Source: Bacteriovoracaceae bacterium (GTDB lineage Bacteria > Bdellovibrionota > UBA1018). Taken from it: a stretch of DNA of 53,537 bases. The notes under the pieces are model-generated. The model was given only the letters and a program-made list of their open reading frames with translations. It did not search any database and had not been told where the DNA came from. Location of the stretch: positions 1 through 53,537 of the forward strand of contig CANHSO010000001.1 in the NCBI GenBank assembly GCA_947463705.1, written 5' to 3'. Position numbers and translations under genes: made by a program. Positions 35,662-36,619 of the stretch are shown here, in pieces; the first letter of the stretch is position 1; each line of letters starts with the position of its first letter.

Positions 35662-35702
35662 GAAGCATCTTAAGGTCACAAATTGTGACCTTAAGATGCT
35701 TC
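35662..35702. promoter_or_regulatory. 41-nt perfect palindrome upstream of the ORF6N-DnaA_C gene
   Basis: GAAGCATCTTAAGGTCACAA-A-TTGTGACCTTAAGATGCTTC has 20-bp perfect arms. It lies 60 nt upstream of ATG 35762. An extra half-site, TTAAGGTC, sits at 35715-35722. Confidence 0.8.
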
Positions 35703-35761
35703 AATCGTGACAGCATTTAAGGTCGGGATTGAAATCTCAAGGCATTGAAGGAGAACTGCTT

Positions 35762-36619
35762 ATGGAACTAGCGACCAGTGAGGTCAAAAGTCACATCCAT
35801 CTGATCAGAGGCTTGCACGTTATGATGGATAGTGATCTTGCAGTCTTGTTTCAGACCAAAACAAAAGCGCTCAATCAAACTGTGAGTCGAAACAATGAGC
35901 GATTTCCAGAAGACTTTTCATTCCCTTTGACTCGTGAAGAATACGAAACCTTAAGGTCACAAATTGTGACCTTAAGAAACTTGGCCCATGGGCAACATCG
36001 AAAGTATCTACCTCGGGTTTTTACTGAACACGCGGTTCTTATATTGTCGAGCATCTTGAACACCGATCGAGCAATTCAAGTAAGTATTGCTTCCGCACGG
36101 GCCTTTACGCAGCTTCGCAGTCAAAAGGACTCGAGTAATCATGTGCACAGCTTGCAAGTGAATGCACTGCTTGGCAAAATTGATAAAATCGATTTAAAGC
36201 TGGAGCATACCATCAGCGAATTGCGGGTCTTGACCAAGCAATCCAAGGAACCGATTAACCAAGCCACTCCTCAGATATCAGAAATTGCTTATTGTAAAGG
36301 TGGCCACTCCGATGAGCACCAGGTTAAAAGGATCTATTCCATCCAATCAGCCGTTGCCAAAAAATTCGGGATAAATGCATCGGACTTGAGCAGTGCAAAG
36401 CGAGAGCAAAGGATTGTTCTTCCGCGGCAAATCACCATCTATCTCATCAGAAAGCATCTAGGAATCAGCTTCAAAGAAATTGGGCAAGTATTTGGAGGTC
36501 GGAATCACGCCACACTCATCCACGCTGTTGAGCGGATCTCCACCAAAATAAAGTTGAATCAGGCAATTGGTTCTACTGTTGTCGAGGTCGAGAGGTCGCT
36601 TGGTTTCGAGTCGAATTAA
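35762..36619 (+). CDS. Fusion protein: N-terminal ORF6N (KilA-N/Bro-related) DNA-binding domain plus C-terminal DnaA domain IV (Bac_DnaA_C) HTH
   Basis: The N-terminus (IHLIRGLHVMMDSDLAVLFQTKTKALNQTVSRNNERFPEDFSFPLT..RKYLPRVFTEHAVLILSSIL) fits the ORF6N pattern. The C-terminus (IQSAVAKKFGINASDLSSAKREQRIVLPRQITIYLIRKHLGISFKEIGQVFGGRNHATLIHAVERI) fits the DnaA domain IV pattern (RQIAMYL..S...IG..FGGRDHTTV.HA..KI). I prefer ATG 35762 with GAAGGAG upstream over the TTG at 35729 in the track. Confidence 0.75.
   Translation: MELATSEVKSHIHLIRGLHVMMDSDLAVLFQTKTKALNQTVSRNNERFPEDFSFPLTREEYETLRSQIVTLRNLAHGQHRKYLPRVFTEHAVLILSSILNTDRAIQVSIASARAFTQLRSQKDSSNHVHSLQVNALLGKIDKIDLKLEHTISELRVLTKQSKEPINQATPQISEIAYCKGGHSDEHQVKRIYSIQSAVAKKFGINASDLSSAKREQRIVLPRQITIYLIRKHLGISFKEIGQVFGGRNHATLIHAVERISTKIKLNQAIGSTVVEVERSLGFESN
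35950..35976. repeat. Intragenic copy of the 27-nt palindrome core CTTAAGGTCACAAATTGTGACCTTAAG
   Basis: It is an exact match to 35669-35695, the core of the 41-nt palindrome. It lies within the ORF6N-domain coding region, in the codons for LRSQIVTLR. Confidence 0.85.

Follow-up and report, generated by a model that had tools for sequence, protein, structure and literature searches.

Why does a gene carry the same long palindrome twice, once in front of its start codon and once within its own reading frame? The question is raised by a 53,537-nt stretch of a Bacteriovoracaceae genome (contig CANHSO010000001.1, positions 1–53,537, hereafter the window), in which a gene fusing an ORF6N domain to DnaA domain IV is accompanied by two identical copies of a 27-nt palindromic core, CTTAAGGTCACAAATTGTGACCTTAAG, at 35669–35695 and 35950–35976, with a spacing of 281 nt. 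The features at issue are the following:

35762..36619, plus strand: ORF6N + DnaA-domain-IV fusion gene, 285 aa (PF10543, PF08299)
35661..35703, no strand assigned: non-coding perfect palindrome 21+1+21, a satellite copy with its frame closed by stops and the longest arms of 87 non-coding copies surveyed
35669..35695, no strand assigned: upstream 27-nt core, identical to the intragenic copy (0 mismatches, 0 expected)
35716..35741, no strand assigned: candidate decayed upstream copy, containing the half-site discussed below, arms unpaired
35950..35976, plus strand: intragenic palindrome 13+1+13 encoding (T)LRSQIVTL(R), the window instance of a family-wide element

Our analysis indicates that the intragenic copy is a codon-embedded element of the whole ORF6N family and not a second operator that merely falls in the coding sequence (CDS), and that the upstream copy is the derived, optional one.

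The upstream copy is a perfect palindrome, as an earlier note on this DNA had described, although it spans 43 nt with arms of 21 nt (TGAAGCATCTTAAGGTCACAA and TTGTGACCTTAAGATGCTTCA around a central A) rather than the 41 nt and 20-bp arms given there; it ends 59 nt 5' of the ATG at 35762, and its centre (35682) lies at −80. The sequence and coordinates of the repeated core had been given correctly, and the repetition is non-random: allowing up to three mismatches, no third copy occurs in the 53.5 kb (0 expected, 100 shuffles), nor does the window contain any further 13+1+13 palindrome of the same type. The two distances reported with it, 281 nt between the copies and 188 nt from the ATG to the intragenic one, were confirmed. 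Read in frame, the internal copy is acC TTA AGG TCA CAA ATT GTG ACC TTA AGa, which translates to T-L-R-S-Q-I-V-T-L-R inside the ORF6N domain and has its symmetry centre at the first base of the Ile codon, while the equivalent frame of the upstream copy is closed by stop codons on both sides. A proposed half-site, TTAAGGTC, is present as well, but at 35717–35724 and not at 35715–35722. It lies in a segment (35716–35741) made of a left-arm-like 10-mer, TTTAAGGTCG, followed by TTGAAATCTCAAG, which is similar to the right arm of another family variant; the arms of this segment no longer pair (at most 6/13 at every centre scored), and it may at most represent a decayed second upstream copy.

We fetched 160 loci of ORF6N relatives, 80 from GTDB species genomes (Bacteroidota, Acidobacteriota, Planctomycetota, Clostridia, Patescibacteria, Omnitrophota, Legionellaceae, one archaeon and others) and 80 from IMG/VR, and located the motif from protein context alone, leaving palindromy unused, which gave 108 distinct loci. 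At these, the motif paired at all 13 positions in 42 cases, at 12 in 22 and at 11 in 30, and the mean of 11.9 pairs out of 13 compares with 5.1 in synonymous-codon shuffles and 3.3 at other centres of the same genes. About 87% of the genes retain the palindrome, across phyla. Its codons encode L-R-S-Q-[I/F]-[V/A/G]-[T/I]-[L/S]-x over 27–33 nt of perfect or near-perfect symmetry; at most loci it is the best palindrome of the whole 3.4-kb stretch, and in many the pairing reaches 16 bp per arm. Carriers include phages and plasmids, of which annotated collections gave few (5 phage records and 24 plasmids). Two divergent members, L283 and L287, have no palindrome at this position. In a divergent ORF6N subfamily found beside integrase genes on Legionella plasmids (L284 and L285), the same place is taken by a palindrome of another sequence, GAACTGGTGGAAAATTTCCACCGGTTC in the former and GAACTGGTCGAAAATTTCGACCGGTTC (...GTCGAAAATTTCGAC...) in the latter, a synonymous Val change in one arm being paired with His>Asp in the other. 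A Segatella copri plasmid (L165, NZ_CP152486, 4140 bp), whose only two annotated genes encode ORF6N and a replication initiator, carries the palindrome GAGGTTATCAAAAAATTTGATAACCTC, which differs in both sequence and codon phase. The survey shows the intragenic 27-mer to be the window gene's copy of an ancestral, family-wide element. This codon-embedded palindrome has apparently not been described so far; Rfam 15, searched with the window and seven related loci, returned chance-level matches only (E ≥ 0.13, far below gathering scores), and we found no description of an ORF6N-linked palindrome in the searchable literature, where a core sequence matched as text in one article only (PMC10213047, a taxonogenomics paper judging by its title); no target site or function of ORF6N was found there either.

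The way in which the palindrome is laid over the reading frame constrains the protein. Each base of the left-arm codons (Leu, Arg, Ser, Gln) has its partner in the right-arm codons, such that left-arm wobble bases face second positions on the right (Leu3–Leu/Ser2, Arg3–Thr/Ile2, Ser3–Val/Ala/Gly2, Gln3–Ile/Phe2), right-arm wobble bases conversely face second positions on the left, and first positions face first; all 13 pairs include at least one first or second codon position. Because of this geometry, amino-acid replacements in the right arm are matched by synonymous changes in the left: V>A goes with TCA>TCG, T>I with AGG>AGA and L>S with TTA>TTG, and K>E is matched by TTA>CTA. Further residue pairs that track the base pairing are S/V and S/A and, although chemically odd, F/E (TTT/GAA), Y/G (TAC/GGT), L/A (TTG/GCA) and Q>K with V>S. 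The GC content of the 27-mer stays at 0.32–0.38 over loci ranging from below 35% to above 55% GC, and high-GC loci too use AGG/AGA for Arg (CGN in 2 cases), CAA for Gln and TTA/TTG for Leu. In 92 distinct 33-mers, double-sided changes were seen in 13 of 16 pairs and amounted to 207 cells against 78 in shuffles, with none of 500 shuffles reaching 207. Paired cells make up 84.8%, compared to 28–43% when the partner columns are slid, and the covariation score is 0.345 against 0.06–0.11 for slid partners, figures to be read with the caveat that the sequences are related and that homogenisation of the arms would yield the same signal. These patterns show that arm changes are compensated even where this runs counter to codon usage and costs amino-acid replacements.

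Homogenisation is the core of an explanation that needs no function at all. An ancestral inverted duplication would have become a self-maintaining coding palindrome, in which purifying selection at L, R, Q and T keeps one partner of each pair constant and quasipalindrome correction by template switching rewrites each arm after the other, so that the palindrome would stay perfect and seem to covary. The IVT[L/S] part of the motif would then echo LRSQ as its reverse complement, and satellites and in-frame tandem copies would be neutral by-products of template switching or slippage. Template switching is reported to make the arms of inverted repeats alike, to invert the spacers between them and to conserve inverted repeats that are perfect (PMC5941160, PMC8794818, PMC8604942). 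The first or second codon position present in each of the 13 pairs fits this account, as do the many double changes and the few G.U intermediates seen in coding copies. So does the central base, which in the family alignment is nearly always A or T (Ile ATT or Phe TTT), hardly ever G or C (Val/Leu), and alternates between A and T (I/F) as spacer inversion predicts; an A/T-only central base is the pattern expected either of such inversion or of a requirement for an A/T-rich centre. The right arm, moreover, encodes a low-confidence loop (predicted local distance difference test score, pLDDT, below 50 for residues 71–78 of the domain model) that tolerates tandem insertions, and copies arise locally in coding and non-coding DNA alike.

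These local copies are a frequent companion of ORF6N genes. Non-coding copies within 450 nt were present at 48 of 206 distinct loci (~23%), comprising 87 sites, 43 of them paired at 13/13. Upstream satellites are centred 14–120 nt before the start codon (−80 in the window, −55 in L010, −56 in L041, −27 in L035, −14 in L016 and −120 in L025), downstream ones lie 8–34 nt past the stop codon (a Legionella pneumophila plasmid has one at +17) without a T-tract, and L025, L016 and L057 have palindromes on both flanks of the gene. The comparison shows the 43-nt upstream palindrome of the window to be such a non-coding satellite of the ORF6N element, with the longest perfect arms (21) of the 87. Its similarity to the CDS copy continues for 6 nt past the palindrome on the 3' side only (31/33 identical), and its additional arm length is the reverse complement of this shared flank, which weakly suggests that it was copied from the CDS and that its arms were extended afterwards.

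Clusters also occur, with three sites upstream in L293, L327/L353 and L333 and four downstream in L349, and the upstream ones reach ~200 nt from the open reading frame (ORF). In L057, a metagenome-assembled genome (MAG) labelled 'uncultured bacterium', positions 1380–2430 hold parB, an ORF6N gene with three in-frame palindromes, a six-copy array and topA; the six non-coding palindromes of the array repeat with a 51-nt period, are separated by semi-conserved GCTAATAATAA-like spacers, and look like a centromere or iteron array. Neighbouring sites are 51–52 nt apart in L057, L016 and L099; over all loci there was no general helical or periodic spacing, and upstream-to-internal distances showed no phasing by eye. 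In about a dozen genes, including L003, L057 and L082, extra in-frame copies sit 27–63 nt from the first and lengthen the low-confidence loop of the AlphaFold2 (AF2) model. AT-rich perfect palindromes persist in the non-coding DNA of high-GC genomes (L293).

It is here that the explanation without function becomes strained. Satellites lie 220–340 nt from the coding copy without flanking homology and recur near starts and stops in many lineages; ordered arrays exist, with six copies at 51 nt in L057 and 3–4 in L293, L333 and L349; AT-rich symmetry survives outside genes in the high-GC L293; and the palindrome has been kept by most of the family across phyla. Template switching under protein selection is a good explanation of the coding copy but a poor one of the satellites, which are ordered and recurrent, and as a complete account we consider it unlikely.

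A scan of metagenome contigs for the exact 27-mer, made with no protein information, returned 82 stretches, in 60 of which the 27-mer lay inside an ORF matching the ORF6N hidden Markov model (HMM) and encoded xLRSQ[IF]VTL[RS]; another 16 had an ORF6N ORF elsewhere in the stretch, mostly 13–215 nt away, and 6 had none. Since 76 of the 82 matches are tied to ORF6N in this way, the palindrome is not a dispersed repeat of the miniature inverted-repeat transposable element (MITE) or repetitive extragenic palindrome (REP) type, the outcome that the earlier note had named as fatal to its proposal. A dispersed REP, bacterial interspersed mosaic element (BIME) or MITE is also rejected in the window itself, where the only two copies in 53.5 kb are both at the fusion gene.

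The same generality bears on the other partner of the fusion. The protein contains a bona fide DnaA domain IV (aa 193–259, PF08299, 86.8 bits) besides its ORF6N domain (aa 11–98, PF10543, 90.9 bits against a cut-off of 27.8), so the palindromes could in principle be iterons or origin-like sites bound by the DnaA part, as had been proposed. Yet the palindrome is general to ORF6N genes, nearly all of which lack the DnaA_C domain, and it is present in ~200 genes of this kind. Nor did the suggested resemblance to a DnaA box hold up: 9-mers within one mismatch of TTATCCACA number 7 in the window against 9.3 expected, and none falls in the palindromes; one TTATCCACA-like 9-mer lies 109 nt past the stop codon of the fusion gene. 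We give iterons read by domain IV hardly any credence, and the element belongs, on this evidence, to the ORF6N module and not to the DnaA moiety. The fusion protein was also rejected as a chromosomal initiator DnaA, as the full-length model TIGR00362 scores 93.5 bits against a cut-off of 343.9, matches only at model positions 339–436 (domain IV) and leaves the AAA+ domain III unmatched. An identical protein is present in the MAG GCA_947459275.1. Among 1467 ORF6N homologues at E ≤ 1e-5, the sole other ORF6N+DnaA_C fusion found was P0004 (locus L003, 36% identity), whose CDS carries two tandem palindromes 63 nt apart, TTTGAGGTGCCAAATTGGTACCTCAAA and TTTGAGGTCACAAATTGTGACCTCAAA, with arm differences from the window that are compensated. 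L003 lies ~300 nt from a tRNA-Thr gene.

What, then, would the palindrome do for an ORF6N gene? We favour, at a probability of roughly 45%, the reading that it is a portable cis site of a dimeric ORF6N protein and serves autoregulation. The family's describers reportedly proposed a winged-helix or KilA-N-like DNA-binding fold for ORF6N. Our AF2 model of the domain (pLDDT 79.5) is a compact beta-beta-alpha-alpha-beta-alpha-beta-alpha unit, followed in the protein by a long helix of 58 residues (aa 102–159). Fold searches of the Protein Data Bank (PDB) with the domain alone placed the Dachshund/Ski DHD first (template modelling, TM, score ~0.5, E 0.2–1) and MerR-like RacA/BldC next, all of them weak and none significant; the full-length fold search was uninformative, and a sequence search of the PDB gave no solved ORF6N structure and coiled-coil noise only. 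The model suggests that the ORF6N domain may be winged-helix-like and that the helix after it would suit dimerisation. The putative recognition-helix and RFP-turn residues R43, N44, R47, F48 and P49 are invariant across the family, which fits with a conserved target core (T..CAAWTTG..A).

On the favoured reading, an ORF6N protein with this winged-helix-like domain and a dimerising helix would recognise the palindrome, and because the site lies inside the ORF, the gene would carry its own operator wherever it is transferred, making autoregulation portable. In the window, where two identical palindromic sites are separated by 281 bp, the perfect and presumably promoter-proximal copy together with the internal one downstream could support tight, possibly cooperative or looped autorepression of a fusion product that would be a potentially harmful regulator; DnaA domain IV would be an add-on DNA-binding module that does not read the palindrome. 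The operator pair and autorepression proposed in the earlier note are compatible with our results, and somewhat strengthened by the modelled fold and by the non-coding copies 14–120 nt before unrelated ORF6N starts. The perfection and the covariation of the arms would probably be kept by intrastrand pairing, through template switching in replication and/or selection for a hairpin or cruciform, on top of recognition by the protein. Long-range pairing between upstream and intragenic copies was rejected as a general mechanism, as elsewhere the copies differ at compensated positions (19–24 of 27 identical); it is feasible in the window, where they are identical.

Several observations weigh against a protein-read operator. 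Divergent subfamilies keep a palindrome of different sequence, and in one case of different codon phase, at the same place, so that self-complementarity, and not a fixed recognition sequence, is what they conserve. Within one locus, sites differ at arm positions 4, 5, 7, 8 and 10–13 while each remains internally symmetric (L057, L293). A single protein that binds every site would not explain this symmetry, which calls in addition for base pairing or homogenisation of the arms. Natural operators are, to our knowledge, rarely perfect palindromes of 27–43 bp. A sigma-70 scan around the window's upstream copy gave no promoter-like match, and scans at two loci with clustered palindromes found no promoter either. 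Sense-strand mismatches in non-coding copies are G.T more often than A.C (27 vs 13), which hints weakly, and not decisively, at RNA. A looser 19-nt pattern in IMG/VR matched 113 stretches, of which 24 had an ORF6N gene and 89 had none in the stretch; by rough count the latter represent ~25 phage lineages, and given a rough chance expectation of 7–20, we take them to be partly background. In some IMG/VR stretches (L186, L174, L195, L188 and L183), a core of 19–27 nt lies between genes in a terminator-like setting, with A-runs before it and T-runs after it. Two phage lineages or more contribute these copies, the fetched stretches contain no ORF6N gene, and the arms covary between related phages.

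The hint of RNA leads to the possibility that the palindrome acts in the mRNA, as a hairpin of 12–20 bp with an A/U-rich apical loop that would affect translation, RNase III processing or mRNA stability, with ORF6N perhaps as the protein that binds the RNA. A paired structure is classically recognised by compensatory covariation, and pairing is kept despite its amino-acid cost and persists in divergent subfamilies whose palindromes have changed in sequence and codon phase. Folded as RNA, the two window copies form independent local hairpins and the leader is strongly structured (z = −5.6); satellite positions suit mRNA ends (−14 in L016, −27 in L035, others 8–34 nt past the stop); the sense-strand excess of G.U over A.C in non-coding copies agrees, and the phage copies precede T-runs. 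Coding copies speak against it. They contain very few G.U pairs, and in all 20 cases where Thr>Ile brings a T into the right arm, Arg is encoded by AGA and never by the wobble-compatible AGG. Their sense-strand mismatches, G.T in 14 cases and A.C in 50, are not decisive, one codon-constrained position dominating the count. The innermost A–T pairs, which are unable to form in an RNA hairpin, are conserved (CAA and not CAG in >95%). There is no U-tract at ORF6N-linked downstream copies, three-site clusters reaching ~200 nt upstream are unlikely to be transcribed in full, and no Rfam family matched. Strict Watson–Crick symmetry, conserved innermost A–T pairs and scarce G.U fit duplex DNA better than RNA, and we regard an mRNA hairpin as decidedly unlikely. 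An intrinsic terminator role for ORF6N-linked copies was rejected for want of a T-tract; in the window, no T-run follows either copy on the plus strand, and a terminator scan flagged both on the minus strand only, with weak T-rich tails.

The genomic surroundings bear on yet another explanation, in which the palindrome would be a structure-specific DNA site, a single-stranded hairpin or cruciform used in recombination, transfer or replication of mobile elements, and the gene a cassette with its recombination or origin site both at its borders and within it. In the window, two further features frame the fusion gene:

35134..35257, no strand assigned: left copy of a 124-nt direct repeat (88% identity), context outside the palindrome system
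36792..36915, no strand assigned: right copy of the 124-nt direct repeat, inside a 149-aa ORF (36645–37094, minus strand)

The repeat brackets the fusion gene, its left copy lying in a truncated 79-aa look-alike (35005–35244). Two public assemblies of the same organism start ~376 nt upstream of the fusion gene, at about window position 35386; the repeat and these starts suggest a partial duplication or an insertion boundary. The wider neighbourhood (32901–35091 and 37167–38671) is island-like, with a gene for an AAA_14+DUF4143 ATPase, a vapB/vapC-like toxin–antitoxin pair, the ORF6N fusion, tRNA-Ser(tga) and serS. Over the loci surveyed, ORF6N genes were found in integrative elements, plasmids, restriction–modification (R-M) operons and tRNA-adjacent islands, and many are solitary chromosomal genes (L282). 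In L281, a tandem ORF6N pair lies between integrase/HTH_17 (Xis) and TraD/MobA/type IV coupling protein (T4CP) genes of an integrative mobilisable element, and in L286 an ORF6N gene is situated inside a type I R-M operon, between hsdM with a winged helix-turn-helix (wHTH) gene and hsdS.

A structure-specific site would agree with the integrase–Xis–ORF6N×2–relaxase/T4CP order of L281, with ORF6N genes beside integrases on Legionella plasmids, with the 4.1-kb plasmid carrying only ORF6N and Rep, with a window gene that adjoins tRNA-Ser within its 124-nt direct repeat while the other fusion adjoins tRNA-Thr, and with palindromes on both sides of the gene in L025, L016 and L057. An A/T-rich centre, as these palindromes have, favours cruciform extrusion. 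No recombinase, HUH nuclease or relaxase is consistently linked, however, and many of the genes are solitary and chromosomal; the palindromes have no asymmetric core beyond the single central base, and no pairs of empty and filled sites were found. This explanation is very improbable in our estimation.

We consider it doubtful, if possible, that the nucleic-acid palindrome and not the peptide is what is primarily conserved, as a self-complementary cis element, be it a hairpin, a cruciform or a symmetric site, that is carried along in the reading frame of ORF6N and dictates the signature motif. If so, 'IVT[L/S]' would be a reverse-complement echo of the constrained 'LRSQ' codons, and the element would seed satellites around its host gene, as a gene-embedded, self-propagating regulatory or mobile palindrome of a sort not described before.

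ORF6N, a very common domain about which little is understood, occurs in phages, plasmids, integrative elements and defence or R-M islands. If the palindrome is its binding site, the whole family would gain a ready consensus, TTTRAGRTCRCAAWTTGYGAYCTYAAA, and an experimental handle, and it would clearly exemplify a regulator with an operator in its own reading frame, for which autoregulation does not depend on the landing site. Whatever its function, the palindrome offers a clean natural case of self-complementarity overriding codon usage and dictating amino-acid covariation, with a bearing on how 'conserved protein motifs' are understood, on analyses of dN/dS and of coevolution, and on the debate whether stems are maintained by selection or by template switching. 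In the window, attention moves from the DnaA moiety to the ORF6N module.

Among known systems, auxiliary intragenic operators that act with DNA looping are provided by lac O2 inside lacZ and gal OI inside galE. The likeness lies in a promoter-proximal palindromic site with a second site a few hundred bp downstream in a CDS, which is how the 281-bp pair of the window would most naturally be read. The internal sites of lac and gal belong to genes other than that of the regulator, have imperfect symmetry and are not a conserved part of the regulator's gene family, whereas the putative ORF6N site lies in the regulator's own ORF and in the same codons of ~200 genes across phyla. In parS inside parB/spo0J and in the lambda ori iterons inside the O gene, the CDS of a DNA-binding protein likewise contains that protein's palindromic site, which is inherited with the gene and has further site arrays nearby. 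Neither encodes a family signature motif or shows arm-by-arm compensation dictating amino acids, and ORF6N differs further in having no consistently linked ParA-like or replication partner. REPs with their RAYT gene (REPINs) are short palindromes flanking an associated protein gene, and Rickettsia palindromic elements (RPEs) insert in frame; the former resemble the ORF6N palindromes in lying beside an associated gene, and the latter in being tolerated as in-frame units (compare L003, L057 and L082). A REP or RPE is present as tens to hundreds of copies scattered over unrelated sites, in contrast to the ORF6N palindromes, which stay at or beside ORF6N genes (2 in 53.5 kb; 76 of 82 linked), and ORF6N has no HUH transposase domain.

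Coding palindromes, perfect inverted repeats within a CDS, have been described in the mitochondrial genes of Nematomorpha (Mikhailov et al. 2019, PMC6649704), where, as here, both arms encode conserved residues and protein function has to compromise with self-complementarity. The nematomorph palindromes are lineage-specific, up to 284 bp long and spread over many genes of one genome (PMC6649704), whereas those of ORF6N are specific to a gene family, 27–33 nt long, found across phyla and attended by satellites in non-coding DNA. Template switching at quasipalindromes as a means of maintaining perfect inverted repeats (Lavi et al. 2018, PMC5941160; Monttinen and Loytynoja 2022, PMC8794818; PMC8604942) accounts for perfect arms, multi-base compensation, few G.U pairs and the flipping of a central A/T. 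It is a mutational mechanism and not a function, and the accessible portions of those papers do not describe a palindrome fixed at the signature motif of a widespread family and surrounded by satellites. That the palindrome is new in kind, a nucleic-acid element that dictates the motif of a protein family, is a tentative and somewhat doubtful suggestion; we rate the finding as akin to intragenic operators, to coding palindromes and to inverted repeats maintained by template switching.

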